Part shown: in pieces, positions 7,674-35,131 of the stretch
Layout: each line of letters begins with the position of its first letter
How positions within the stretch are numbered: the first letter of the stretch is position 1
Assembly (NCBI GenBank): GCA_043807745.1
Contig: JAZDFP010000035.1
Span: 1-35,600, forward strand
Direction of reading: 5' to 3'
From: Planctomycetota bacterium
GTDB taxonomy: Bacteria > Planctomycetota > MHYJ01 > JACQXL01
DNA length: 35,600 nt
Position numbers and translations under genes: made by a program
Notes under the pieces: model-generated
Told to the model about the DNA's origin: nothing
The model's input: the letters and a program-made list of their open reading frames with translations, nothing else
Database searches by the model: none

Positions 7674-8864
7674 ATGAAAAGACGAGCCACCCACAGGGTG
7701 ACCCGGCGGGCCAGACGGGAATTTACTTCAGAAGCAGTTTGTATGGGTCATCCGGATAAGATATGCGACCAGATTTCGGATGCGATTCTTGATGAGATTA
7801 TTGCCAAAGACCCGACTGCACGGGTTGCCTGTGAAACGATGGTTAAAACCGGTATGGCCATTGTAGCCGGCGAAATCACTACCAAAACATACGTGGAAAT
7901 ACCTGATGTGGTCAGAAGAACCATTAAAGAAATCGGGTATACTGATGCTAAAATGGGTTTTGATTATGAAACGTGTTCCGTGCTGACATGCATTCAGAAA
8001 CAATCACCGGATATTGCCCAAGGTGTTGATGAAAAGAGCAATAAGAAATTAGGTGCCGGAGACCAGGGAATTATGTTCGGTTATGCCTGCCGCGAAACGG
8101 CTGAATTTATGCCTTTACCAATTATGCTGGCGAGGAAACTTGTTAATCGTGCTGCTTTGGTTAGGCAGCAGGGCATTTTATCTTACCTTAGACCTGATGG
8201 TAAGTCTCAGGTGACAATAGATTATGAGAACGACCATCCGGTTAGAGTAAATACGATAATTCTTTCGCTTCAACATAATCCTGAAGTTAGCCATTCAAAG
8301 ATAACAAAAGATTTAATCAAACATATTATTGTTCCCATAATACCGAAACATTTAATGGATAATAAGACTAAGGTTCTGATTAATCCGACAGGCAGATTTG
8401 TTTTGGGAGGACCATATGCAGATTGCGGTTTAACAGGCCGCAAGGTAGTCGTAGATACATATGGGAGTATGGGAACTCATGGTGGCGGAGCTTTTTCCGG
8501 TAAAGATCCGACCAAGGTTGACCGGAGTGCTTCGTATGCAGCCAGATATGTTGCCAAGAATATAGTCGCTTCAGGATTAGCTAATCGATGCGAGGTTCAG
8601 TTAGCTTATTCTATCGGTGTTGCAGAGCCTGTTACTGTTGATGTTGAAACATTTGGCACAGCCCAGATAGACGAAGAGAAGATTATCAGATTAGTCAGGA
8701 AAAACTTCGACTTGACGCCGGGAGGGATAATTCATCATCTTCATTTACGCAGGCCCATATATAAACATACTGCCAGATACGGTCATTTTGGCATAAAGGG
8801 ACCCGGTTATACCTGGGAGATGACTGATAAAATAAATATATTAAGAAAGGCATTGAAAAAATGA
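7674..8864 (+). CDS. metK: S-adenosylmethionine synthetase
   Basis: [36 protein letters not shown] and [17 protein letters not shown] motifs; 396 aa; RBS upstream. The N-terminus has an Arg-rich extension ([14 protein letters not shown]). Confidence 0.95.
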
Positions 8865-10120
8865 AATACGATATCAAAGATATTAAGTTGGCAAAAGTAG
8901 GGCAGAACAAAATAGACTGGGCTGAGAAGCATATGCCCGTAGTGGCGAAGATTCGAGAGCGTTTTAGTCGTGAAAAACCATTGAGAGGTAAACGTATCGC
9001 TGCCTGTCTTCATGTTACTTCGGAAACAGCAAATTTAGTCAGGACTCTATCGGCTGGCGGTGCCCAAGTTTTTCTGTGCGCCTCTAATCCTCTGTCTACT
9101 CAGGATGATACTTCAGCGGCTATAGTTAAAAACTATCATATTCCTGTTTTTGCTTACAGGGGCGTTAATAGAAATAATTATTACAAACATATTGAAGCGG
9201 TTCTTTCCTATAATCCGCATATAACCATTGATGATGGTGCTGATTTAGTCTCGTTAATTCATTCTAAACAACGGGATAAGGTTGATAATATTATTGCCGG
9301 TATGGAAGAGACCACAACCGGTGTTATCAGATTAAGAGCAATGGAAAGAGATAATGCCTTATTATATCCCATATTTGCTGTTAATGATGCACAGATTAAA
9401 TATCTTTTTGATAATCGTTATGGCACAGGGCAATCAACATTAGACGGTATTATAAGAGCGACAAATATCCTGTTTGCCGGTAAGGTAGCAGTAATAGCCG
9501 GTTACGGTTGGTGTGGTCGAGGGTTTGCCATGCGTGCTAAAGGGCTCGGTGCTCGTGTTATTATAACTGAGGTAAATCCATTAAAATCTATAGAGGCTAT
9601 TATGGATGGTTTTGATGTAATGCCTATGGGGAATGCGGCTAAAATCGGTGATATTTTTTGCACGTTCACAGGTGATATTTCTGTTCTTAGACGAGAACAT
9701 TTCTTAGTGATGAAAAATGGTGCGATAGTTGCTAATTCAGGTCATTTTAATGTTGAGATAGATATACCGTCATTAGAACAGTTAAGTAAAAAGATAAAGA
9801 AAGATATCAGGCCTAATGTTGAAGAGTATGTTTTGAGTGATAAAAAATCAATTTTCCTTTTGGGTCAGGGACGGCTGGTTAATCTCGCTTGTGCCGAAGG
9901 GCATCCTGCTACTGTAATGGATATGAGTTTCGCTACTCAAGCTTTAACAACTGAGTATGCCGTAAAAAACGCCAATAAACTTCAACCGAAAGTTTATCCT
10001 GTGCCAGTTGAAATAGAAAACTGGATAGCTAAATTAAAATTAGAATCAATGGGAACAAGAATCGATTCTCTTACCGAAAAGCAGAAAAAATATTTGGCCA
10101 GTTGGGGTGAAGGAACATAG
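8861..10120 (+). CDS. ahcY: Adenosylhomocysteinase (short ~420-aa form)
   Basis: [15 protein letters not shown], an NAD-binding GYGWCGRG and GHFNVEID motifs. Its ATG overlaps the metK stop (ATGA), indicating translational coupling. Confidence 0.95.
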
Positions 10121-15303: not shown

Positions 15304-17079
15304 TTATTTTACCCATTTCCATTTCTTAGAAGTATCTATTTCTGTAGATCCTTCTGTACCTTTGATTTTATTTTCCAATATCTTAACGGTTGATTCTGCT
15401 GATGTTATAATACGAGGGGTAACAAATACTAATAATTTTCTTTCGATGAGAGTGCCCGATTTATATCGGAATAAATTATTAACAAATGGAATGTCACCTA
15501 AGAAAGGAATTCTTTCAAGTATTTTGGTAAGTCTTTCATCCACGAGTCCTCCGACAATTGCGGTTTGTCCGCTTTCTATAATTAGATTAGTTACGATTGT
15601 TGATTGTCTTACTCTTGGAAGACGAAGGGTTTGACCGGCAATTTCGTACGTTTCAAAACCATTATCTTGTCCAGAGAGATCTTCTAAACGAGGGATAAGA
15701 GTTATAATAATTTTATTTGTGTCTTGAACTATATGGGGTGTAACCCACAATTGGAATCCGACGTTTATAGGCGTTGCTTCAGTTAATTCATACATGGGAA
15801 TACCAGCCGATGAATATGTGACTTTTATTTGAGGATACCTGATTAATTCGCCTACAAATACTGTTGCTTCTTCTCCGTCTATAGTAAGTAAATTAGGTTC
15901 TTGAATAAATTTTGTTTTAGTATCGCTTTTAAATAATCTTAGTATCGTAGATGCATCATATGAGTTTAGGAAGAACTGATTAAAAGAAGTATCTTGCTTA
16001 CGTCCAAATCCAAAAGGAAGTGTAGTAGAAATACTCGCAGGACTTGGTTTTGCTTTTATTATGTCAGATTTTGGGTTTACAGTTCCTCCGAACTCATATT
16101 TTAAACCAAGGTTAATGAGGTCATCATTAGTAGTAGAAACAAATTTTAATTCAATCAATACTTGTCTGGGAGCTACATCTAACTGGTCAAGTATTTTTTC
16201 AATCGAATCAAGAACAGTTTTAATATCCTGTACAATAATACTATTTGTCTTAGTATCATATTCCAAAGAACCAATAGGAGTGTTTCCTTTATGGGACAAC
16301 ATATTTTTAAGGATATTCAATAAAGTAAATTCTTTAATAGCGTCTTCAGTTGGTTTGACCTTACCAACAGCATATGGTGTTACGATAGTTGCTTTGAATG
16401 ATGCAGGTGGTCTCAAATATTTTAACCGGAAAATTCTTGTTTCTAATTGGTCTTTTAATGTCTCGGTTTTAACTATACGGATAACATTATATTTTTCACG
16501 TACGAGACTAAATCCGGTAGTTTTAACGATGTTATTTAAAGCTTCTAACCATGGTACGTCTGATAGTATCATCGTAACTGCACCCTTAATATCTTCAGAG
16601 ATAATAACATTAATACCAGCAAGTTTAGCAATATTACGGATTACTTCCTCTAATGGAGCATTTTTAAGATCCATATTTATTGTCGGTGGTTTAGTTATTC
16701 TAAAAAGTGAAGGAGTTGCTTCTTCTAAAATACATTGAGCAATCATAACAGTTTCTTCCAGTGCAGAATGCCAATCTAAATTTCTGAACGTTACTGTAAT
16801 GGTGTCTTCATTAGATATTCTTAAATCAATTATTATATTAACGTTTGCAATTTCACCAATAGTTTCTAAGGCGGCTCTAAGAGGTTTATCTACCCATTCA
16901 ACAGTGATAGTCGGAATGGACGGTTTATCTGTTACTGATGGAGTTGGTGAAGATGATGATATTGCAGTGGGTGTTTGTTTTTCTTGAGCTAATAAGACAA
17001 TGCTGGAAAATATTATTATACATAAAATAATACTTAGACAACGGAATATGATGAGAGATAGTTTTCGGTTTGATTCCAT
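15304..17079 (-). CDS. pilQ: Type IV pilus secretin PilQ
   Basis: 591 aa with an AGGAG RBS and a signal peptide. It has repeated secretin-N type domains and the C-terminal secretin signature GGLVDE...IPFLGDIPFVNNLFRY...LLVFVTPRII. It lies downstream of pilMNO. Confidence 0.9.
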   Translation of the reverse strand: MESNRKLSLIIFRCLSIILCIIIFSSIVLLAQEKQTPTAISSSSPTPSVTDKPSIPTITVEWVDKPLRAALETIGEIANVNIIIDLRISNEDTITVTFRNLDWHSALEETVMIAQCILEEATPSLFRITKPPTINMDLKNAPLEEVIRNIAKLAGINVIISEDIKGAVTMILSDVPWLEALNNIVKTTGFSLVREKYNVIRIVKTETLKDQLETRIFRLKYLRPPASFKATIVTPYAVGKVKPTEDAIKEFTLLNILKNMLSHKGNTPIGSLEYDTKTNSIIVQDIKTVLDSIEKILDQLDVAPRQVLIELKFVSTTNDDLINLGLKYEFGGTVNPKSDIIKAKPSPASISTTLPFGFGRKQDTSFNQFFLNSYDASTILRLFKSDTKTKFIQEPNLLTIDGEEATVFVGELIRYPQIKVTYSSAGIPMYELTEATPINVGFQLWVTPHIVQDTNKIIITLIPRLEDLSGQDNGFETYEIAGQTLRLPRVRQSTIVTNLIIESGQTAIVGGLVDERLTKILERIPFLGDIPFVNNLFRYKSGTLIERKLLVFVTPRIITSAESTVKILENKIKGTEGSTEIDTSKKWKWVK

Positions 17080-17093
17080 ATAAAACTCCTTTT

Positions 17094-18779
17094 TTATTTG
17101 CTTTTATATTCTATCGTAATTTCTTCATTTTTGTAATTGAATGTAATTGAATTACGCATAATTTTTTTTATTACAAGATTATCTAATATTGTATTACTTT
17201 CTTCATAGGTTTTATTATTAATTATAACTGTAGAGGCAGGTATATGCTTGAAATAAGATATTGGCAAGGAAATTTCTGCACCAAGGAAATATATAATTAA
17301 CGGTGGTAATTTAACCTCTTCTGGTTTAATATAATAAATAATACCGTTAACAACTGGTTGTTTAGAAAAGAATTCTTCTATTATTTTGGCGCGGCGAGAT
17401 AGTTCCTTCATTTCATCAACTAATTTTAATATCTCTGGAAGATATTCAGTATCTTTTACCTCTTTTCTTTCGGCTAATTCTGAAATTTTGGATAAATTTT
17501 TAGGTATATCCTTGAAATTTCTTAACTCAAAATCCTTTTGAGATTCATTTTTTATATAACGGGCTTCAGCATAAATTTTTTCAGCTCCAGCGAAAAGTTT
17601 TTCAGCTTCGTCACGAATCGAAGCCATTTTTTCTTTAGCAGTATTATTATCAGTACAATTTATTTGCTCATAAATATCCAATATTTTTTGGTATGGTGCA
17701 GATAATAATTTATCCCTTTCTTCCTCTGGAGTTTTATCGTAAATATCTTTCATTAATTTCAATTGGTCCTCTGCTTGTTTCAATAAAGTTAATAATTGTA
17801 TATCAGGTGGTAGTGTGGGAGGTTGTTGTAAAGATGTGGTATTAGGTGAACTTTTTTTTATTACTGGCGTGAGTTTAATCGTAAATGGATCAGGACGTCC
17901 TCGACGTTCAAAGATAGGTTTATTATTATTCACTTTGTTTGCAAATTCTTCCTTTGTTACCTTGATAATATTAATATCACCAATAGTTTGTTTTAGAAGA
18001 ATACCATTTAATCCTATAAAATATTCTATTTCTTTAACACTTGCCGCGGGATCTAAAATAATTAAAGAACAAAGATATCCTTCGGTGGGTGTCCCCATTA
18101 TTGTTTGAGAAGTCTTTTCTTTTACCATTAAGTGTGCATTAGTAAAGAAGTTACTTGAATTATAATAGCTAATAAATCTTAGAGGATAACTTTGATTAAC
18201 AGACCAATTGTTTTCAATTAAGGCAGTGCCTAATAATTGTTCAGAATAAAAATTTTCTTTAGGTGTAAATTCTTGGTTACTTGTTTCCGGAATCGGTTCA
18301 TTGGTAGATGATACGGTTTGAACTGTGATGGAAAACTTTACTTTATTTTCATCCTTAATGCCCTTAAGAATAAATTCGCGATTATCTATTAATAATAGTT
18401 TAAGGTTTAAGCTTTGGAAATCCAAACTATCTACATTAACTTGAATTTCCTCGGTTAATTTTTGATATGGCAAAAAAGAAGGTTTAATAAATGAAATTTC
18501 CCTTAAGAATTTATATAACTTTTGTACTTGAGAATTTTTTTGAGAAGTGTTATTTAATTCGCTAAATGAAGTATTCATGTAACCAATTTTTTCCCCTTTT
18601 AATAAAATAACATACCAACTCTCATCGTTTTTAGCAGTTTCCGGTAAGTTTTTAATGGGTTTTTCTGATTGAATTGTTGTGGAATTAGAAGAAGATTTAG
18701 TGGTTTGTTCTGAGATTAAGCTTGTTGGTAATACATAAATCAGTAAGACTAATGTTATTGAATAAAAAAATAAACGCAT
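17094..18779 (-). CDS. Hypothetical 561-aa secreted protein occupying the pilP position
   Basis: Signal peptide, a long N-terminal beta-rich region, a central coiled-coil/helical region, and a C-terminal beta segment (VVNGIIYY...ITFNYKNEEITIEY). The call rests on its position between pilO and pilQ. Confidence 0.5.
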   Translation of the reverse strand: MRLFFYSITLVLLIYVLPTSLISEQTTKSSSNSTTIQSEKPIKNLPETAKNDESWYVILLKGEKIGYMNTSFSELNNTSQKNSQVQKLYKFLREISFIKPSFLPYQKLTEEIQVNVDSLDFQSLNLKLLLIDNREFILKGIKDENKVKFSITVQTVSSTNEPIPETSNQEFTPKENFYSEQLLGTALIENNWSVNQSYPLRFISYYNSSNFFTNAHLMVKEKTSQTIMGTPTEGYLCSLIILDPAASVKEIEYFIGLNGILLKQTIGDINIIKVTKEEFANKVNNNKPIFERRGRPDPFTIKLTPVIKKSSPNTTSLQQPPTLPPDIQLLTLLKQAEDQLKLMKDIYDKTPEEERDKLLSAPYQKILDIYEQINCTDNNTAKEKMASIRDEAEKLFAGAEKIYAEARYIKNESQKDFELRNFKDIPKNLSKISELAERKEVKDTEYLPEILKLVDEMKELSRRAKIIEEFFSKQPVVNGIIYYIKPEEVKLPPLIIYFLGAEISLPISYFKHIPASTVIINNKTYEESNTILDNLVIKKIMRNSITFNYKNEEITIEYKSK

Positions 18780-18803
18780 AGTTGAATATTTAATTAGTTT
18801 GTT

Positions 18804-19397
18804 TTATTTTTTAGTTTGAGGTTTATTGTAAACATAAGTTGTTAGTGTCAAATCTAAACTATATCTAATAAGTTTATTATTAGTACTTTCTGTGATCGGT
18901 TTAACAGAAAATCTATCTACTTTAATAAATCTTTGATAGGTTTCTAGGAGATAAATGTAGTATATAACTTGAAAAAAATCACCAGTTATTGATAACCTAT
19001 AAGAAATTTTGTCAAAAAGACTACTTTGTATGGATGGCTGAATTCCTCTGTTTTGTTCAGGTATGGCACTAGAAAGATAAATATTTGCTTCACGACTTAA
19101 TTTTGTTAGTGTATCAATAAAATTCTCATAAGAAATTTCTTCTTTCGTAGGCATAAGTGCTTCAAGTTCATCTTGTTCTTTTCTTAATTTACTGAGTCTT
19201 CCCTCAAGTTCTTCCATTTTAACCGATCTATCCTTGGCTTCTGTAATCTTGGTGGAAGTCTCATTAATATTTTTAGTTAAGAGAGAAAGTTTTTTAGAAA
19301 ATACAAAATAACCTACAACTCCTAAAATAACAGCAATAACTGCAGGTATAATAATAGTCAAAATAAGTAGTTGTTTTTCCGATAGTTTTAGTTTCAT
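18804..19397 (-). CDS. pilO: Type IV pilus assembly protein PilO
   Basis: 197 aa with one TM helix followed by a coiled coil. Its start overlaps the pilN stop (TAATG), and its position in pilMNO-Q order fits. Confidence 0.75.
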   Translation of the reverse strand: MKLKLSEKQLLILTIIIPAVIAVILGVVGYFVFSKKLSLLTKNINETSTKITEAKDRSVKMEELEGRLSKLRKEQDELEALMPTKEEISYENFIDTLTKLSREANIYLSSAIPEQNRGIQPSIQSSLFDKISYRLSITGDFFQVIYYIYLLETYQRFIKVDRFSVKPITESTNNKLIRYSLDLTLTTYVYNKPQTKK

Positions 19398-20026
19398 TAT
19401 TTTTTTACTTTAAGTTCTTTTGCTAAGTCTATATCAAATTTAACTGCGGATTCCTCCTTATATTCAGGTTGAGCAATAACCTGAAATTGGGGTGGTTCAT
19501 TTAATCCAAGATTAAATGTTTCTTTTAGTCCGGGGTGATTTTTAAGTTCTATTCTAAAACTAGTCATTCTGTCTGAAGATGATCCAGCCGCAAGGCAATT
19601 CATACTGATAGATGCTTCTATTTTTGTATCAGCACGGCGACCAGGAGGAGGACCATCCAATGCTTGTAACGAAGTGATCCAAATATCATGAGAACTATGA
19701 ATAACATCCCATAGTTCATCTATTTTTTCCCACCATAAGAAAGAACGAGTATTTTTTATTTCCGCGGCGGTTTTATTCCACTTATTAAGTTCTGTTTCAT
19801 CAACTAACATTTGGTCATAAAGTTCAACTTTTTTCAGTAAGGATTCCAGATCTTCCTTTTTTGTATTATAAATTGCACTTTGTTGTTTAGTCTCTCTATA
19901 TTGGTATACATTCCAAATTAATAAAAGTGCACAAATAATTATTGCAGCATTCATTGCTAAAAATCTAGGTAAGGGAATTCTTTCTTTACGCTGTCTTTCC
20001 GGTGGAAGTAAATTAATACAAATCAT
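19397..20026 (-). CDS. pilN: Type IV pilus assembly protein PilN
   Basis: N-terminal INLLP motif (MICINLLPPERQ) followed by a single TM helix; 209 aa; adjacent to pilM. Confidence 0.8.
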   Translation of the reverse strand: MICINLLPPERQRKERIPLPRFLAMNAAIIICALLLIWNVYQYRETKQQSAIYNTKKEDLESLLKKVELYDQMLVDETELNKWNKTAAEIKNTRSFLWWEKIDELWDVIHSSHDIWITSLQALDGPPPGRRADTKIEASISMNCLAAGSSSDRMTSFRIELKNHPGLKETFNLGLNEPPQFQVIAQPEYKEESAVKFDIDLAKELKVKK

Positions 20027-20029
20027 ATA

Positions 20030-21082
20030 TTAATCCTTTTTTATTCTTGCTGCTAGTCCGGTAGCTATAACTAATTGAGAGGCTTTTTCCTTTAATTCAG
20101 GGGTATCAATTTTTTCGGACAAGACTTCAAATGACTCACACGGATCCCATCGAATAGGCTTTTTATTAAATGCTGATTCAAATGATTCTTCTAATCCTTG
20201 CAATAAAGAAGAGCCTCCAGAAAGATAGATATCGTCTATCGGTTTATCAAACTGGTGTTCAAAATAATCAAATGAAAGTTTTATCTCATGAGTAAGATCA
20301 TCTAGAAAAGAGCTTATATAATCTTTAACTTCTTCATATTTAAGACCGGGGTTTTTCTTGAGTTCTTCTGCTTCTTTTTCAGGTATTCCCATTTTCTTGC
20401 TGGTAGATTCAGTAAAATCTTTACCGCCTATATAGATTTCTCTAGTAAAAGATACTTGAAGTTCAGACATAATATTAACATTTGTTTTCATTGCTCCAAT
20501 ATCTATAAGAGCTGCTACTCTATTTGCTATATTTGATGATGGATTATTTGACTGTTTTAATTCAAAGGAGTTACCTAATGCAAAACAATCAACATCAATA
20601 GCAATAGGCCAAAGACCACTTTCTTCTAAAAGGTTAATATGCTCATCAAGTTTGTCTCTTTTAGCAGCTACTAAAAGAACCCGCATATCTTTTATTGTTC
20701 CACCACTTTTTTGTTCTTTTTTTATATCTGGTAGACGTAAACAATCAATCATTACTTCATCTATTTCAAATGGAATATATTTACTTGCTTCATATTGTAT
20801 GGCATTTTTTAATTCTTCATCAGACATCTCTGGCATAGTTATATAACGAACTATAACTGAACGTCCTGATATTGCTGTAACTACTTTTGTGGTGTGAAAA
20901 TCATGTGTTTCCCATATTTTCTTTAATGTTTCTTTTATATTTTCTCCAGAAAGGATTTCATGATAAGCATAACCACTGAGAGCATAGTTATTCATTTTAG
21001 GTAAGTGGATTAATTCTACAGCTTTAATAACTTGGGAGCCTATATCTAGTCCTACAATTGGTTTCCCTTTTAGTTTTGGCAT
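20030..21082 (-). CDS. pilM: Type IV pilus assembly ATPase-fold protein PilM
   Basis: The actin-like fold signature GLDIGSQVIKAVEL, IDIGAMKTNVNI and YLSGGSSLLQGL; 350 aa. Confidence 0.9.
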   Translation of the reverse strand: MPKLKGKPIVGLDIGSQVIKAVELIHLPKMNNYALSGYAYHEILSGENIKETLKKIWETHDFHTTKVVTAISGRSVIVRYITMPEMSDEELKNAIQYEASKYIPFEIDEVMIDCLRLPDIKKEQKSGGTIKDMRVLLVAAKRDKLDEHINLLEESGLWPIAIDVDCFALGNSFELKQSNNPSSNIANRVAALIDIGAMKTNVNIMSELQVSFTREIYIGGKDFTESTSKKMGIPEKEAEELKKNPGLKYEEVKDYISSFLDDLTHEIKLSFDYFEHQFDKPIDDIYLSGGSSLLQGLEESFESAFNKKPIRWDPCESFEVLSEKIDTPELKEKASQLVIATGLAARIKKD

Positions 21083-28107: not shown

Positions 28108-31100
28108 ATGCGAAAATATTACATAATAGCAATCTTGTTCTTGGTTGCGTTTGTAACCGTTTTTAATTATGTCGGTTGCGGAGGCGGAGGAGGTGGTGGT
28201 AGTAGTAGCGGTAGTAGCACTCCACCAACGACAACTGTACCATCATTAACAACCAAGCCCGCCACTAATGTTCTTCTGACTTCTGCTACATTAAATGGCA
28301 CGGTCAACCCCAATGGTGTTAGCACTACTATATATTTTCAGTACGGTACAAGTTTAGGATATGGCAGCACGACACTTTATCAAAGCATCGGTTCAGGTGC
28401 GAGTTCTATCAATGTGTTTGCCAATGTGACCGGATTAACACCAAATACCAACTATAACTTCAGAGTCGTGGTAAGTAGGAGTGGCAGCACATTCTACGGT
28501 TCAAATTTAACCTTTAAAACCTTAGTAGGAACACCACCGACCTGCACCACCAATGCTGCGGATAATATCACTACTAATTCAGCCAGATTAAATGGCACGG
28601 TTGACCCCAATGGGCTGAATGTTACCTCTTGCTATTTTCAGTGGGGTACAACTACAGATTATTTTGGAGGTAGTCCAACCGCCACTCCATCTACTTTTGG
28701 CATTACAAGTAGTGTTTCTGCAAACATAAGTTCATTATCAATATCTACCACATATAACTTCAGGGTGGTGGCGACCAATATCGGAGGAACAACCAACGGG
28801 AATAATCTGACATTTACTACCGGTACTGTTGCTACTGTAGTCTGCTCCGGTCCTGACCAGATTACCTCCGGAATACAATCTTCATCGTTCACCGCAATCT
28901 CAAGGGACATAAGCAATAATATAGTTTCAGATACATATACCTGGACGAATGCAAATGGCACCGGCACAGCCAATCTTATCGGTGATACATTAACCGGAGT
29001 AACAGCCGGAACAGTAAGGATTACAGCCACCTCGGTTGCTAATCCTGCTATATCAGGGGGCAAAACGGTTACTGTTATTCCGGGCGCTGTTGTTACAGTG
29101 ACGGTCTCAGGCGCTGATTCAATCACCTCTGCGGGGACATCTGAAACCTACACCGCGGTCTCTGAAGATGCGGCTGGCAATAATGTATCAGAAACATACA
29201 CATGGTCTCATACCGATGACGCTGGCTCAATCACCCGGACCACCAACACAATCACCGGCTTTCTGACAGGCGCAGTAACTATTACCGCAACAGGCACCGG
29301 CGCTGTTGCCGGCGGTAGAGTAGTAACTGTAACACCCGGCGCTATAAATGATTATCTCGTCATCCCCGCTTCTTATTCTGTGGTTACCGGCACCAATCAA
29401 ACCGCAACCATTACTGCCCGTGATGTCAATGGCAATACGGTTACCACTGATTCATCTACAGTTATAACCGCGACATTTGTTGTGATAACCGGAACAACCG
29501 TAACAACAGGAACCTTCTATACAAATGATGAATATATTACAACTACAGATACCTACACCTTAAACAGCGGTATAGCAACCATTTGTTACAGGGCAGTACA
29601 CGATGGAACCCCGCCGAATTGGTTCACCATAACCGCTACAGATGACAACGACAAGGAAGGAACAAGTGAAACGGTGGGTATTTACAGCAACCCGACTAAA
29701 TTGGTATTTACAGTCCAGCCGACTGATACTCCTGCGGGCAGCGCATTCAACCCGACCGTTGAAGTGTCGGTTGAGGATGATTATGACAATATTGTGCCAT
29801 CTGCTGTTAATACCATCACCATTACCGGCCCTGCCGGTGTTACACTCGGTGTCATAACTACTACCGATGCGATTAGCGGAACCGCAACCTTTACCGGTAT
29901 GACTGTGAGCGGCATTGCATCTGCAGGTTACACCTTAACGGCTACATCTGCCGGCCTGACATTAGCAATTTCTAATCCATTTTCTATAACCTACGGCGCT
30001 GCAAATAACCTTGCCTTTGTTGCCCAGCCGCAATCTGACACCGCCGGTGATACCTGGGCACCGGTTACGGTCAGCGTTACAGATTCCTATGGCAACGATG
30101 TGCCGGATGTCTCGGTAACCATAAGCAACAATAATGGCACAGCGATAAACGGTTCTCTAACTCAACTTAGTGATGCAAGCGGTATCGCCACTTTCTCACC
30201 ATTGAGTATGACCCTGGCGGCTGATAATTATGTCTTAAGTGCTACATCAGGCGCACTTGCAACTACTTCTTCTGCATTCAATATCACACCTGCCGCAGCG
30301 AATAACCTGGTATTTGTCCAACAGCCGACCACTACCATATCAGGTGCAACCTTCAGTACGATTACAGTCCGCGTCAGGGATATTTATAATAACTTTGTTA
30401 CTACCGCAAATGATACGGTAGTTTTGGCTGTAAGCGCCGGAGCAACACTCGGTGGCACAACCAGTGTAGATGCCGCCGGGGATGGCACTGCGACATTTAG
30501 TGCGGTAACATTGACAAGCGGGATTAGCGGAACCGGTTATACGTTGACAGCTACTTCTGGTGTGCTAACTGAAGCGGTTTCTAATCCATTTGCTATCATC
30601 GGATATGGTGCAGCAACTACTTTAGCCTGGGTGACTAACCCTCCGGCAACTACCATAGCCGGCAATACTATGACTGCATTCACTGTTAGGGTTACAGATG
30701 CTTTAGGCAACAATGTCCAGGGGACCACCGTATCAATAACCACCACTGTTACTACGCCGTTGGTATATCAGGCAGGAACGGCCGTAGCCAATGCAACAGC
30801 CGATAGTGATGCAAGTGGTATAGCGAGTTTTGGCACAATCAGTATGACCTTAGTCGGAACCTATGCCTTGAGCGCCTCGGTCGGTACGCTCTACGCTCCA
30901 CCCTCTACGCTTTTTGATATCACACCGGCCGCGGCGAATAACCTGGCATTTGTCCAGCAGCCGACCACTACCACAGCCGGCAATATTATGACACCCGCAT
31001 TCACTGTCAGGGTTACAGACCAGTATGGCAACAATGTCCAGAGTACCACCGTATCAATAACCACCACTGTCAGTTCCTTGGCAGTATATCAGGGAGGGAC

Positions 31101-32133
31101 ACAAGTAACGAACTATGCGACAGCAGACAGTGATGCAAGCGGCATCGCCATATTCTCTACAATCAGTATGACCCAGGTTGGGACAGGCTATATATTCAGG
31201 GCATCAAGCGGCTCGCTAACCCCGGTAGACTCTACTGCATTCAATATTGCCACCGTTGCCGTGGATGACTATTGCTGGGTGGCAAATTCAGGTTCTAATA
31301 CTGTTACACGCATCAAGAAATCCGACTCTACCACGACCACGATTGCGATAACAGGAGCAACTAATCCTAACCCTCGTGCAGTCGCGGTTGATGAGACCTA
31401 TGTCTGGGTGGCAAATGTTGATAGTGTTAATGTCACCCGCATCAGTAAATCAGATTTAAGCACGATTACGATTGCGGCGGGACGGACCAATGGGGTCTCG
31501 GTTGACGAGACCTATTGCTGGGTGGCAAATTATAGTGAGACTTGGGGTCTCACCCGCATCAGGAAATCCGACTCCACCACGACCACGATTGCCGGAGTGT
31601 TCTCTGTAGTCGCGGTTGACGGGACCTATTGCTGGGCGGCGGCAAATGATGCTAATACTGTTACCCGCATCAGGAAATCAGACTTCACCACAACCACGAT
31701 TACAGTGGGAACTACCCCCCGGGGAATTGCGGTTGACGGGACATATTGCTGGGTGGCAAATGCGAGTACTAATAATGTCACCCGCATCCTGAAATCAGAT
31801 TTAAGCACGACCAGTGTTGCGATTGCTACGACGACCGGCCCCTATGCACTTACGGTTGACGATACCTATTGCTGGGTGACACATTGGGTTAATGCTAATG
31901 TCACCCGTATCCTGAAGACAGATTTAAGCACGACCACGATTGCTGTGCAAACCAGCCCTTATGGAGTCTCGGTTGACGGGACCTATTGTTGGGTGGCAAA
32001 TTTTGGTAGTGGTACTGTCACCCGCATCCTGAAATCAAATTTAAACACAACCACAATTCAGGTGGGAAGTCAACCATTTTCAGCGGGCGATATGACCGGC
32101 TATGCATACGATAATTACTCAAGGGTGCCGTAA
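28108..32133 (+). CDS. Giant modular surface lipoprotein: Gly/Ser linker, 2 FN3-like domains, Big_2-like Ig domains, about 7 invasin-type Ig domains, and a C-terminal 7-bladed YVTN-like beta-propeller
   Basis: Lipobox VGC followed by G7S-rich linker. Two TSATLNGTVNPNG...YFQYGT...YNFRVV modules. Repeated L-x-F-x-QP...V-x-V-x-D-x-YGN-x-V modules. Seven ~40-aa repeats (D-x-TYCWVAN...NVTRI-x-KSD-x-TTTI) span about 31255-32133. Confidence 0.85.
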   Translation: MRKYYIIAILFLVAFVTVFNYVGCGGGGGGGSSSGSSTPPTTTVPSLTTKPATNVLLTSATLNGTVNPNGVSTTIYFQYGTSLGYGSTTLYQSIGSGASSINVFANVTGLTPNTNYNFRVVVSRSGSTFYGSNLTFKTLVGTPPTCTTNAADNITTNSARLNGTVDPNGLNVTSCYFQWGTTTDYFGGSPTATPSTFGITSSVSANISSLSISTTYNFRVVATNIGGTTNGNNLTFTTGTVATVVCSGPDQITSGIQSSSFTAISRDISNNIVSDTYTWTNANGTGTANLIGDTLTGVTAGTVRITATSVANPAISGGKTVTVIPGAVVTVTVSGADSITSAGTSETYTAVSEDAAGNNVSETYTWSHTDDAGSITRTTNTITGFLTGAVTITATGTGAVAGGRVVTVTPGAINDYLVIPASYSVVTGTNQTATITARDVNGNTVTTDSSTVITATFVVITGTTVTTGTFYTNDEYITTTDTYTLNSGIATICYRAVHDGTPPNWFTITATDDNDKEGTSETVGIYSNPTKLVFTVQPTDTPAGSAFNPTVEVSVEDDYDNIVPSAVNTITITGPAGVTLGVITTTDAISGTATFTGMTVSGIASAGYTLTATSAGLTLAISNPFSITYGAANNLAFVAQPQSDTAGDTWAPVTVSVTDSYGNDVPDVSVTISNNNGTAINGSLTQLSDASGIATFSPLSMTLAADNYVLSATSGALATTSSAFNITPAAANNLVFVQQPTTTISGATFSTITVRVRDIYNNFVTTANDTVVLAVSAGATLGGTTSVDAAGDGTATFSAVTLTSGISGTGYTLTATSGVLTEAVSNPFAIIGYGAATTLAWVTNPPATTIAGNTMTAFTVRVTDALGNNVQGTTVSITTTVTTPLVYQAGTAVANATADSDASGIASFGTISMTLVGTYALSASVGTLYAPPSTLFDITPAAANNLAFVQQPTTTTAGNIMTPAFTVRVTDQYGNNVQSTTVSITTTVSSLAVYQGGTQVTNYATADSDASGIAIFSTISMTQVGTGYIFRASSGSLTPVDSTAFNIATVAVDDYCWVANSGSNTVTRIKKSDSTTTTIAITGATNPNPRAVAVDETYVWVANVDSVNVTRISKSDLSTITIAAGRTNGVSVDETYCWVANYSETWGLTRIRKSDSTTTTIAGVFSVVAVDGTYCWAAANDANTVTRIRKSDFTTTTITVGTTPRGIAVDGTYCWVANASTNNVTRILKSDLSTTSVAIATTTGPYALTVDDTYCWVTHWVNANVTRILKTDLSTTTIAVQTSPYGVSVDGTYCWVANFGSGTVTRILKSNLNTTTIQVGSQPFSAGDMTGYAYDNYSRVP

Positions 32134-32303: not shown

Positions 32304-32408
32304 GGGGAAGAAATCCGATACATAGGGGAAGAAATCCGATACATCGGGAATGAAATCCGATATATCGGGGAAGAAATCCGATATATCGGGGAAGAAATCC
32401 GATATATC
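32304..32408. repeat. 21-bp tandem repeat, 5 units (GGGGAAGAAATCCGATA(C/T)AT(A/C))
   Basis: Units lie at 32304-32324, 32325-32345, 32346-32366, 32367-32387 and 32388-32408. The array is bracketed by GGAAA/TTTCC palindromes at 32250-32258, 32282-32295 and 32409-32422. Confidence 0.9.
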
Positions 32409-32493: not shown

Positions 32494-32522
32494 TTGACTC
32501 CGTTAGAAATATTTTATATAAG
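32494..32522 (+). promoter_or_regulatory. Sigma70-type promoter immediately upstream of the first Ntn-like gene (would give a leaderless or near-leaderless mRNA)
   Basis: TTGACT at 32494-32499, a 17-nt spacer, then TATAAG at 32517-32522. The ATG at 32530 is 7 nt after the -10 and has no SD sequence. Confidence 0.5.
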
Positions 32523-32529
32523 ACAAATT

Positions 32530-33627
32530 ATGGCTATTGTAAATGCATTGAGATTTGACGATTATTCAGGTGCCATTATAAGTGATGAGGAGTCCTGGCG
32601 TCTGCGCCGCAGGAGAACAGTCTTCTGCGATAATGTTCATTCCTTGGTTACGCCTGAAATTTCCGATGCGTTTCATATTGAAGCGGTTTATGGCGGTATC
32701 GGCACGCCTGCCATCCATTACGAAACCGTGACCAAAACCCAGCAGAAATTATTAGACATATTCAAGCACCGCAATGACCCGGAAATCAAGAAGCAACTTT
32801 ATAAGACAATCGGTGATATCAGCAAGATTACTTTAGAGAATCTGCAGAAGACTATTAGACGCCGGACAGATGACCGGCTCCGTTTCCTTTACGGTTTTAC
32901 ATCCGAAGACCTTAACCGCGGTTATTTTGTCGCCGGAGGCGACCCTGATGTTAGCACACAGACCCGCCTCGGGCGGGAGTCGCAGGGTGAAAAAATAGAT
33001 ATCAAGCAGGAAAATGTTAAAAGCAAAGCACTGGAAATATCCACGCTTAAGGACAAGAGCGAGACCGCACGTTTTGAGGTTGAGAATCATGCCTGCCTTA
33101 TCGGCTATGATAAAAAGCATGGCTTTACTGCTTACTGCCTGAAGGGTGAAATATCGGTCAGTTCTTTTGTCTCAGGCGGATTTGAAAGTCTGGGCACCGG
33201 TAAATATGGCGGCGGACAGGCGTTTGCCGAATTCCTCAATAAGAAATTCCTGGCAGAACGCACTAAAGGATTCAACCGTATTGAGGGAATGATTGAACTT
33301 ATCTACTCGGCAATCCAATGCTCGCTTTATTTCAGCCAGGTGGGCGGTTATTTCGCCATTGCCTATATTGACGGACGCGGTAAAGACCACGCCAGCCGAT
33401 ATAAAGAGATAATCCATCACCGGGCTAAATTAGCCAGTGAGATTGTCCATAGTTATAAAGCAGGTTACCTGCCTCGCAACATAACCTATCAACTGATTAA
33501 CGATTTGGTTTATGAAGATGCCAAGGAAGATACAATAGAGGGGCGATTCTTCAAGGCAGTTAAAGACCGCAAGAAACTGGAATATTTCCTGCGGGCTTAT
33601 AAACTGGACCCATTAAGAAGGGAATGA
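32530..33627 (+). CDS. Proteasome-beta/HslV-like Ntn-hydrolase-fold protein, predicted catalytically inactive paralog (Ala instead of Thr after Met)
   Basis: 365 aa counted from the ATG at 32530, chosen by N-terminal alignment to the paralog (MAIVNALRFDDYSG vs MTSINAIKFDDYSG). The track's TTG at 32494 coincides with the -35 box. It is homologous to 34094..35131 along its whole length. Confidence 0.6.
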   Translation: MAIVNALRFDDYSGAIISDEESWRLRRRRTVFCDNVHSLVTPEISDAFHIEAVYGGIGTPAIHYETVTKTQQKLLDIFKHRNDPEIKKQLYKTIGDISKITLENLQKTIRRRTDDRLRFLYGFTSEDLNRGYFVAGGDPDVSTQTRLGRESQGEKIDIKQENVKSKALEISTLKDKSETARFEVENHACLIGYDKKHGFTAYCLKGEISVSSFVSGGFESLGTGKYGGGQAFAEFLNKKFLAERTKGFNRIEGMIELIYSAIQCSLYFSQVGGYFAIAYIDGRGKDHASRYKEIIHHRAKLASEIVHSYKAGYLPRNITYQLINDLVYEDAKEDTIEGRFFKAVKDRKKLEYFLRAYKLDPLRRE

Positions 33628-34087
33628 ACAGTGAGCAATGGACAATGAGCAGTTAAGAGTGAGCAATAAGCAGTGAACAATGGAAAAATCAGAAATATAG
33701 AACAAGACCTTGCAGAAAGAATTTATAATTTTGTATTAGGTGTTATAAAATTAGTTAGGTCATTAGACCGGGAGATGTCTGCCCAAGAAATCGGGCGTCA
33801 ATTATTACGTTCGGCCACTTCAATTGCGGCAAATTATGAAGAGGCAACTGTGGCTTTTACAAAGGCTGATTTTACTCATAAACTGAGTATATCTTTTAAG
33901 GAGGCAAAAGAAACCAATTTGTGGTTGCGCTTGATAAGAGATTCAGAGTTATCTAATTCTAATGTATTAAGTAAACTTATTCAAGAGTCATTAGAAATAA
34001 AGAAAATCTTAGGTAAAAGCGTAAAAACAGCTAAAGAAAATCCTTAATTGCTAAATTGTTAATTGCTCATTGTTAACTGTTAATTGA
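33628..34087 (+). mobile_element. Four-helix-bundle gene cassette bounded by inverted AGTGAGCAAT/CAATGAGCA-type repeats
   Basis: The left repeats at 33628-33683 are CAGTGAGCAATG, GACAATGAGCAGTTAA, AGTGAGCAATAAG and CAGTGAACAATGG. The reverse complement of the right region at 34046-34087 contains AACAATGAGCAATTAA, which matches 14 of 16 nt of a left unit. Confidence 0.4.
33673..34047 (+). CDS. Four-helix-bundle protein (23S rRNA intervening-sequence protein / Avd-like family)
   Basis: LLRSATSIAANYEEA...FTHKLSISFKEAKETNLWLRLI matches the family signature. It is 124 aa, and its GTG start lies within the left flanking repeat. Confidence 0.8.
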   Translation: MNNGKIRNIEQDLAERIYNFVLGVIKLVRSLDREMSAQEIGRQLLRSATSIAANYEEATVAFTKADFTHKLSISFKEAKETNLWLRLIRDSELSNSNVLSKLIQESLEIKKILGKSVKTAKENP

Positions 34088-34093
34088 ATATAT

Positions 34094-35131
34094 ATGACCA
34101 GTATCAATGCCATAAAGTTTGATGATTATTCAGGTGTGATGGTCTGCGACGAACAGCGCAGTTGGGGTCCGGAGGATATGAAGATATTCTGCGCCTATAA
34201 AATCAGACCCTGCATTCCACCTGAGATTCAGAAAGATTACGGCATTGTGGCTGCCTACGGTAATACCGGAACATCCACCATCGGCGATGAACTCAAATTC
34301 ACCATCAAGCAGAGAGTCAAGGAGGAATACGAAAAGGAATTAGAGCGTCTGGGCAAAAAACCCAAGCAATTCAAGACCATAGAAGAAATTGCCGGACTTA
34401 CTTTTGATGTGATTACCAAGATGAAACATACCCATATCAACCAGGAAATGAAAGGCAAATACGGTTTTACGACCAACGATTTCTGCCGCGGTTTTTATCT
34501 TAAGGACGGCAAGAAGATAGAAATTACGGATAAAGATATTGCCCGCCAGGTGGATGAAATGCTTACCTGGAAGAGCCGCGGTGAATTGGCACGGGCGGTA
34601 TTCCTTAATGCCGGTATTGTCGCCGGTTTTGAACCGCGTGAAGGATTCAAGATATTCCATTTTTCAATGATTGAGATGTACTGGACGCCGGTCCAGGGTA
34701 TCTTTGTGGCAGACGGCTCAGGTTGCGATACGGTCAATCTCCGGATGGCTGAATTTGCTGCAAATAAATCCATACCCGAACGGCGCGGTAATATTGACCC
34801 TGTAGAAGGATTGGTAGCCATCATAGATGCGGTCAATACTGCTTCGTTTCATAATCTTGGGGTGGGCGGATATTACAATATCATCTGGTTCAACGGCCGT
34901 GCCAAGAATAATATGGAAAAGATGGTGGAGATTAACGACCATCGTTCTAAATTAACCAGCGAGATTGTTTCCGCATTATACGAGGATTTCATATCGCAGG
35001 ATACCGCATTCAAATTGGTTAATGAATTGATTTATCAAGGCAAACCCTACGAACAGATCAATGAGCAACTCTTCAAGAAGACCCGCGACCCGAAACGTTT
35101 ATCCCGTTTCCTCAGAGGCTACAAAATCTAA
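34094..35131 (+). CDS. Proteasome-beta/HslV-like Ntn-hydrolase-fold protein, predicted active paralog (Thr at position 2)
   Basis: The 345-aa protein starts MTSINAIKFDDYSGVMVCDEQRSWG, compared with E. coli HslV [24 protein letters not shown] as I remember it. Further matches are YKIRP (Lys33-like), IVAGFEP..., VADGSGCD (GSG motif) and EGLVAIIDAVNTAS...LGVGGYYNIIWF. An in-frame TGA 7 nt upstream fixes the ATG as the only possible start. Confidence 0.65.
   Translation: MTSINAIKFDDYSGVMVCDEQRSWGPEDMKIFCAYKIRPCIPPEIQKDYGIVAAYGNTGTSTIGDELKFTIKQRVKEEYEKELERLGKKPKQFKTIEEIAGLTFDVITKMKHTHINQEMKGKYGFTTNDFCRGFYLKDGKKIEITDKDIARQVDEMLTWKSRGELARAVFLNAGIVAGFEPREGFKIFHFSMIEMYWTPVQGIFVADGSGCDTVNLRMAEFAANKSIPERRGNIDPVEGLVAIIDAVNTASFHNLGVGGYYNIIWFNGRAKNNMEKMVEINDHRSKLTSEIVSALYEDFISQDTAFKLVNELIYQGKPYEQINEQLFKKTRDPKRLSRFLRGYKI

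Follow-up and report, generated by a model that had tools for sequence, protein, structure and literature searches.

A proteasome-fold gene pair from Planctomycetota and related bacteria with a predicted catalytic and a predicted non-catalytic member

Two genes for divergent proteasome-fold proteins lie near the end of a 35,600-nucleotide (nt) stretch of contig JAZDFP010000035.1 (assembly GCA_043807745.1) from a Planctomycetota bacterium; this whole stretch is called the window here. Positions 32530 to 35131 are occupied by three open reading frames (ORFs) on the same strand: gene A (32530..33627, plus strand), which starts with ATG at 32530 and encodes a predicted non-catalytic partner of 365 amino acids (aa), an ORF of 124 aa, and gene B (34094..35131, plus strand), which encodes a protein of 345 aa with a full catalytic set, predicted to be an N-terminal-threonine hydrolase. 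A preliminary description of this DNA had listed the ORFs of 365 and 345 aa, and both are found where it placed them; the third ORF between them is absent from that account. The ORF of gene A opens at a TTG codon at 32494, yet MAIVNAL is the start of all orthologs. The stop-to-stop frame of gene B begins at 34088, two codons 5' of the ATG and with an in-frame stop directly upstream, and a propeptide is therefore impossible for B, in agreement with the earlier argument that this stop forces the ATG.

A and B are paralogs that align across their full length with 29% identity (BLASTP, E 8e-52), and each of the seven shared motif blocks on which the preliminary description had based their homology is found in the two proteins. 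AlphaFold2 models, based on alignments of 62 B orthologs and 41 A orthologs, reached a mean predicted local distance difference test score (pLDDT) of 93.3 and a predicted template modelling (TM) score (pTM) of 0.89 for B, and a pLDDT of 88.9 and a pTM of 0.87 for A. Both models form an alpha-beta-beta-alpha sandwich of the N-terminal nucleophile (Ntn) type that can be superposed on 20S beta subunits. Foldseek searches of the PDB at E<=1e-3 returned 937 matches for B and 856 for A, and the top 50 matches of each are all 20S proteasome subunits or Anbu. The best matches of B are a Mycobacterium subunit (7pxa_U, E 1e-9) and a Rhodococcus subunit (1q5q_H, target-normalised TM-score 0.80), with target-normalised TM-scores of 0.65-0.80 overall and 0.72-0.80 for the top matches, while A matches 20S beta subunits and Anbu with a best E-value of 1.3e-7. 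Phage HslV-like and proteasome-like proteins also match structurally in the viral library BFVD. The proteasome-beta/HslV fold, which had been read from the order of motifs with structure prediction and Foldseek proposed as a check, is thus recovered for both proteins.

The catalytic residues separate the two proteins clearly. For this comparison, each of 376 near-full-length members was assigned to the profile that scored it highest, which gave 87 A-type, 173 B-type and 116 archaeal C-type sequences, the last belonging to a sister family introduced below. A profile built from B orthologs aligns weakly but colinearly with human beta1 (PSMB6; E 0.02) and equates Thr2 with Thr1, Lys36 with Lys33 and Gly208-Ser209-Gly210 with the Gly128-Ser129-Gly130 motif of the proteasome. 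Thr2 of B (codon 34097..34099, plus strand, as are the codons that follow) is the predicted nucleophile after removal of Met, and this position is Thr in 169 of 170 non-gap B-type and in all 111 C-type sequences, whereas A-type proteins carry Ala (54), Gly (16), Ser (10) or, in three cases, Thr. Lys36 (34199..34201) is Lys in 173/173 B-type and 116/116 C-type sequences; in the 87 A-type sequences this column holds Asn, Ser, His, Thr, Cys and Pro as its six commonest residues, Lys not being among them. Within the Gly-Ser-Gly motif (34715..34723), Ser209 is kept in 171 of 173 B-type and 110 of 116 C-type sequences and is variable in A (Lys, Ser, Thr, Pro, Ala). Asp19 (34148..34150), the likely equivalent of proteasome Asp17 with a register uncertain by one or two residues, is conserved in all three groups (171/171 in B, 116/116 in C and 83/85 in A). 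Gene A of the window has Ala2, Asn35 and G222-T223-G224 as counterparts, which bears out the earlier remark that A has Ala at the nucleophile site and no Lys33 equivalent; the conservation of Thr2, Lys and Gly-Ser-Gly among B orthologs, named there as a check, is near-invariant in B and lost in A. A-type proteins have invariant residues of their own (R28, R244, G272 and G273). The description of A as alpha-like holds for its inactivity but not for its N-terminus, because A has no gating extension (helix H0) and starts level with B (MAIVNAL versus MTSINAI).

Both proteins are considerably longer than their structural relatives, and the models show where the additional residues are located. B has a long helix H1 (residues 61-86) and a helix H2 (96-123) that is longer than in a beta subunit, and a short seven-residue helix (43-49) lies ahead of strand S5, as judged from secondary structure and alignment. 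H2 is followed by an insertion at residues 124-172 (34463..34609, plus strand), in which DSSP assigns a helix, a hairpin and two helices to the model, and residue 173 again aligns with residue 96 of beta1 in the profile alignment. An insertion at this site had been predicted with a size of 60-90 aa; it exists, but comprises only about 45-50 aa in B. Conserved columns within it are G124, F125, D129, G133, Y135, I144, W159, F170 and N172, and the insertion is kept in A, in B and in the archaeal C family, as a full-length hhalign comparison of B with C indicates. It is longer in A of the window solely because of a lineage-specific, disordered insert of 16 aa. This insert, VAGGDPDVSTQTRLGR, is found inside the post-H2 hairpin (residues 134-149, positions 32929-32976), is predicted to be disordered (pLDDT <50 for residues 140-150) and is missing from the ortholog in the closest relative, a 94% identical locus in a Planctomycetota bin (L003). 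Helices H3 and H4 of B are about 12 residues apart (224-235), with a helix of four residues between them. Past helix H5, a C-terminal extension of three helices (34982..35128, plus strand) carries a conserved LRGYK motif at its end, so that B of the window terminates in LRGYKI. The helical tail of about 70 aa proposed earlier is indeed conserved, but measures about 45 aa past H5 and about 63 aa when H5 is included. Most B-type and archaeal C-type proteins have the LRGYK motif (window 35114-35128) within one to three residues of their C-terminus, and A-type proteins continue after it with variable tails of 8-31 residues. A Tyr at a fixed place close to the free C-terminus is reminiscent of the motifs with which proteasome activators dock.

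The family has few members and was missed by every profile library searched (Pfam, NCBIfam, PADLOC and PHROGs). The Pfam and NCBIfam models gave no match to A and B of the window, the PADLOC and PHROGs models gave nothing usable, and neither protein reached the gathering score of PF00227; a Pfam scan of all 62 B orthologs found weak PF00227 matches in just two. A HMMER search of 1.84 billion representative proteins (50% identity) yielded only 347 relatives at E<=1e-3. These include the C family, proteins of 300-330 aa from Woesearchaeota and Nanoarchaeota (DPANN), which hhalign aligns with B over the full length, including the post-H2 insertion and the LRGYK tail (100% probability, E 6e-59). 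Several C members pass the PF00227 gathering score with 27.6-29 bits against a cut-off of 22.4, and this links the whole family to the proteasome family in sequence in addition to structure. The PF00227 search that had been suggested for A and B thus fails for the two proteins themselves and succeeds for several of their archaeal sisters. Neighbour-joining separates A, B and C into three clades that are essentially pure.

A survey with one genome per GTDB species identified 64 loci in 39 genomes, all of them metagenome-assembled, and further loci were obtained from Ignavibacteria. The survey genomes are labelled as Planctomycetota (one such bin carries the label of Candidatus Kuenenia stuttgartiensis, an anammox organism), Vulcanimicrobiota/Eremiobacterota, CSSED10-310, Sumerlaeota, Muiribacteriota, Wallbacteria and Schekmanbacteria, together with bins labelled Gemmatimonadota, Bacillota and Synergistia. 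An A-type gene lies directly 5' of B on the same strand for 63 of the 66 B-type genes with enough upstream DNA, and each of these 63 loci has an intact A. The two genes are usually tightly packed: the stop of A overlaps the start of B in 30 loci (22 with a 4-nt overlap, seven with 1 nt and one with 29 nt), 22 loci have gaps of 0-17 nt, nine have gaps of 30-143 nt, and only the window and L003 have wider spacers (466 and 527 nt). The A and B distance matrices correlate with r = 0.94, a value reached by 0 of 999 Mantel permutations (58 pairs). Seventeen genomes carry two or three loci, and every pair in these multi-copy genomes falls into matching A and B subclusters. Duplication and divergence have therefore affected the pair as a whole, which has been copied up to three times in a single genome. 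The idea that A is a partner of B agrees with these results, since A is conserved and co-evolves with B and is not a decaying copy. Some genomes (among JAKJGF, DAIOEN, JBEHWP, JBEHWO and CAYSLJ) have two A-B pairs and a third B-type gene; in L011, L012 and L015 this third gene has no A within 3-8 kb upstream, giving five family members per genome.

The unusual spacer of the window is filled by the third ORF (33673..34047, plus strand, 124 aa), whose product is a four-helix bundle and belongs to the 23S_rRNA_IVP family (PF05635 E 2e-18; TIGR02436 E 1.5e-24). This cassette is present between A and B in the window and in L003 and at no other A-B locus, and the ORF is not part of the conserved pair. 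It is bracketed by an imperfect inverted repeat with arms at 33627..33682 and 34055..34086, which pair into a stem about 45 bp long (-37.6 kcal/mol, z -5.4) and are made up of heptamer-like units GAGCAAT / ATTGCTC. The cassette looks like an intervening sequence of the ribosomal RNA type that has entered an mRNA spacer and uncouples the otherwise translationally coupled A and B. Upstream of gene A, at a distance of about 120 nt, five head-to-tail copies of the 21-mer GGGGAAGAAATCCGATAYATC occupy positions 32304-32408, with a chance expectation of 0. An array of this size cannot fit into L003, where just about 100 nt separate A from the preceding gene. The copies could be protein-binding sites.

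Among the annotated genes of the window, domains of the AAA+ unfoldase, Pup-like, ATP-grasp or transglutaminase type were not found, which extends to the whole window the earlier statement that no AAA+, Pup or Anbu-type partner is adjacent. Likewise, AAA+ unfoldase and Pup/ubiquitin-like partner genes were not found in the Pfam-annotated related loci, and ATP-grasp and transglutaminase domains were not found in the related loci. The window encodes S-adenosylmethionine (SAM) synthetase, S-adenosylhomocysteine hydrolase, a 3-deoxy-D-manno-octulosonic acid (Kdo) transferase, type IV pilus/type II secretion proteins, Fpg and a radical-SAM enzyme, and an FG-GAP protein is encoded downstream of the pair. 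The SAM-cycle genes at 7674-10120 and the pilus/secretion cluster on the minus strand at 15304-21082, with PilM, a PilO-like protein and a secretin, represent an ordinary chromosomal context. A defence-system or phage origin was rejected, given the lack of PADLOC/PHROGs matches and the ordinary chromosomal genes of the window. Gene A is preceded by a gene for a surface-type protein of 1341 aa (28108-32133). This protein contains Ig-like and fn3-like repeats, and copies of a TYCWVAN...VTRI.KSD repeat follow one another in its C-terminal part. At one Woesearchaeota locus (L071, 1-5997), a protein of 2842 aa with PKD/Big repeats stops 3 nt before the single-gene homolog; the repeat-protein neighbours in these two places are probably a coincidence.

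The commonest neighbour in other loci is a fusion of Ser/Thr kinase, ATPase and tetratricopeptide repeat (TPR) domains, which 17 loci have at a distance of up to 6 kb from the pair (e.g., L045 3539-6676). Once syntenic duplicates are removed, this association amounts to about one quarter of the lineages, and position and strand vary. Such kinases are very abundant in these phyla, and the link to the pair is unproven and may merely reflect how common they are. A block of genes for 1-deoxy-D-xylulose-5-phosphate (DXP) synthase, FtsJ, NAD kinase, an SMC-like protein and polyprenyl synthase was rejected as a functional partner, being synteny of one clade. A Memo-like gene, encoding AmmeMemoRadiSam protein B (Memo family), is a neighbour in four to five loci and stands directly 5' of A in one pair subtype of CSSED10-like genomes (L044, 5545-6804; L046; L057; L062). 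AMMECR1 (AmmeMemoRadiSam protein A) is encoded 170 nt 3' of the archaeal homolog in a single Woesearchaeota locus (L074, 6099-6647). These are too few cases for an association of Memo-like genes or AMMECR1 with the pair, and the radical-SAM gene of the window is not of the AmmeMemoRadiSam type. In Ignavibacteria (L067-L070, 6107-11726), the pair belongs to a same-strand cluster with gaps of 13-110 nt and is flanked by a kynurenine-formamidase-type cyclase (PF04199) on one side and by kynureninase and a kynurenine-monooxygenase-like FAD monooxygenase on the other. Neighbours elsewhere are a peptide ATP-binding cassette (ABC) transporter and polyprenyl synthase, Ser/Thr kinases, or Memo-like genes.

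The pair can be compared with four characterised groups of proteasome-fold proteins. With the 20S beta subunits (MEROPS T1A, PF00227; best matches PrcB 7pxa and 1q5q), it shares the Ntn sandwich, the occurrence of active and inactive paralogs, and the order of Thr1, Asp17, Lys33, the Gly47 region, Gly-Ser-Gly and the GG strand. Different from 20S beta subunits, B has no propeptide, both proteins stay below the Pfam threshold, and the fold carries about 45 aa after H2, a pre-S5 helix, a spacer of about 12 aa from H3 to H4 and, at the C-terminus, three additional helices. Moreover, A lacks the H0 extension and is no nearer to alpha subunits, and genes for Mpa/ARC/PAN, Pup and Bpa are not nearby, unlike in canonical 20S systems. 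HslV is likewise a bacterial proteasome-fold protein, and in both cases Thr becomes residue 1 via Met removal alone, as predicted here for B; one Joint Genome Institute (JGI) record of a related protein is even auto-named HslVU peptidase subunit. However, HslV is compact (about 175 aa), free of insertions, homo-oligomeric and encoded beside hslU, whereas the proteins described here have 345-365 aa and come as a two-gene pair with no AAA+ gene in the window, and B has four insertions or extensions. Anbu is bacterial, its C-terminal helix is longer and an ATPase partner is not proven for it, and it is among the top structural matches in Foldseek, especially for A. Unlike Anbu, the pair has two subunit types and a post-H2 insertion, and the ATP-grasp and transglutaminase partners of Anbu are not in the window. 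Connectase resembles B as a long, divergent proteasome-fold protein with an N-terminal Thr (predicted for B), no propeptide and no ATPase. It is confined to certain methanogenic archaea, has no H1/H2 and carries a two-helix insertion between S3 and S4 (PMC8665760), whereas H1 and H2 are present in the B model and the main insertion follows H2. Thus, the pair lies outside the 20S beta, HslV, Anbu and connectase families and has the defining features of none of them.

Beyond these groups, Fuchs, Alva and Lupas described 22 further uncharacterised proteasome homologs in 2021 (PMC8665760). Among these, PHI as well as PMI-3 and PMI-4 have a long insertion after H1/H2, and PMI-2 to PMI-6 also have one between H3 and H4; PHI occurs in PVC (Planctomycetes-Verrucomicrobia-Chlamydiae) bacteria, in other bacteria and in 'other archaea' (PMC8665760). 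The pair resembles PHI as well as PMI-3 and PMI-4 in several ways: Thr1/Asp/Lys are kept, a propeptide is missing, an insertion follows H1/H2 and the gene context is uninformative, and the distribution of PHI resembles that of the A/B/C family. These three groups were compared with the family by their published description, and accession look-ups of 20 family members returned none of the group representatives (WP_012956871.1, OGZ26396.1 and HDY66466.1). Of nine NCBI accessions retrieved for family members, eight belong to series that presumably post-date the 2021 survey. Whether the family or its archaeal sister is one of the 22 groups is, in our judgement, evenly balanced. The preliminary view that this architecture matches no described member of the proteasome family is therefore upheld for 20S beta, HslV, Anbu and connectase, and is about as likely as not to hold for the groups of Fuchs et al., some of which also have an insertion after H1/H2. 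Inactive paralogs, tandem genes or hetero-oligomers are not mentioned in PMC8665760 or in the later papers searched, and the literature searched contains no later characterisation of these groups. What is new is the conserved pair of live and dead genes; the fold family itself adds no more than one further member to a known kind.

We consider it probable that A and B form a co-inherited pair of proteasome-fold (MEROPS T1-like) proteins in which B is catalytic and A is not, and which would act together as a hetero-oligomer without a dedicated ATPase. Methionine aminopeptidase strips Met before Thr, and E. coli HslV matures in this way. Met1 of B would be removed by the same activity, exposing Thr as residue 1, and this Thr would work together with Asp19, Lys36 and Ser209 in the manner of a 20S beta subunit or HslV. 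A may serve as a structural or regulatory partner, because the nucleophile, the Lys and the Ser are gone from it while the fold, the insertion and the tail are kept. The two proteins would be made from one transcript in matched amounts, and the putative hetero-oligomer, whatever its stoichiometry and shape, would most likely cut peptide bonds in peptide or protein substrates.

Several observations weigh against this interpretation. B-type genes without an adjacent A exist (L011, L012 and L015), and the archaeal gene is single and has no adjacent paralog in the five loci examined; a neighbouring A is therefore not a necessity for B-type proteins. On the side of the fold, A and B of the window lack direct Pfam/NCBIfam matches, single-sequence PDB searches with both returned noise and no PDB sequence match, and the profile-to-PDB E-values are just 0.02 and 0.008. 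No neighbour is conserved across loci past lineage synteny, and the neighbourhood thus gives no hint of a substrate. Furthermore, a long insertion at the post-H2 site would clash inside a ring, as argued in PMC8665760.

The last point gives weight to a different arrangement, in which the pair would be a small protease or transpeptidase for sequence-specific processing, built as a connectase-like heterodimer and not as a ring, with A as a substrate-binding or lid subunit. This is a serious rival because the conserved insertion sits where the lumen of a ring would be, and the extra C-terminal helices, too, are at sites that are hard to fit into stacked rings (PMC8665760). The absence of an unfoldase among the annotated window genes is also in line with it, and connectase, described as a monomeric ligase with a proteasome fold (PMC7980362), provides a precedent. 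We nevertheless regard this arrangement as unlikely. The long H1/H2 of the B model set it apart from connectase, which lacks these helices and has its insertion between S3 and S4 (PMC8665760), connectase entries are absent from the top 50 Foldseek matches of A and of B, and no candidate substrate gene is conserved beside the pair across loci.

It is improbable that B, as an Ntn amidohydrolase, has a small molecule as its substrate, with A as its inactive partner. The kynurenine gene cluster of Ignavibacteria, in which the pair shares strand and short gaps with its neighbours, would fit such a role, and the wider Ntn clan is rich in small-molecule amidases (general knowledge; PMC8665760). However, this context is limited to one lineage, with different neighbours elsewhere, and the close structural matches are all members of the proteasome family and no other Ntn amidases. 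That A and B do not interact, A being a drifted duplicate with another or no function and the adjacency historical, is highly improbable: the solo B-type genes and the single-gene archaeal homolog speak for it, but A is intact in the paired loci with its own invariant residues, its stop frequently overlaps the start of B, and it co-diversifies with its own B in matched subtypes within genomes.

If A and B do form a catalytic/non-catalytic assembly, a further and more tentative step, which we hold to be possible but somewhat doubtful, is that the family represents an independently evolved two-subunit machine. A single bacterial duplication would have split a single-gene ancestor, still present in DPANN archaea, into a dead and a live subunit, and the lumen-side insertion together with the C-terminal helical bundle would give the assembly a quaternary structure unlike that of any known proteasome homolog. 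Such a machine might carry out ATP-independent protein processing in Planctomycetota, Eremiobacterota/Vulcanimicrobiota, CSSED10-310 and related phyla. If this is true, the split into dead and live subunits would parallel the alpha/beta split of the true proteasome. How separate catalytic and non-catalytic proteasome subunits arise is an open evolutionary question, for which the family would be a second natural case, with the single-gene Thr form of DPANN archaea directly comparable with the translationally coupled live/dead pair of bacteria. The family is a well-defined target for structural and activity studies, and practical use may be possible if the enzyme is sequence-specific like connectase.

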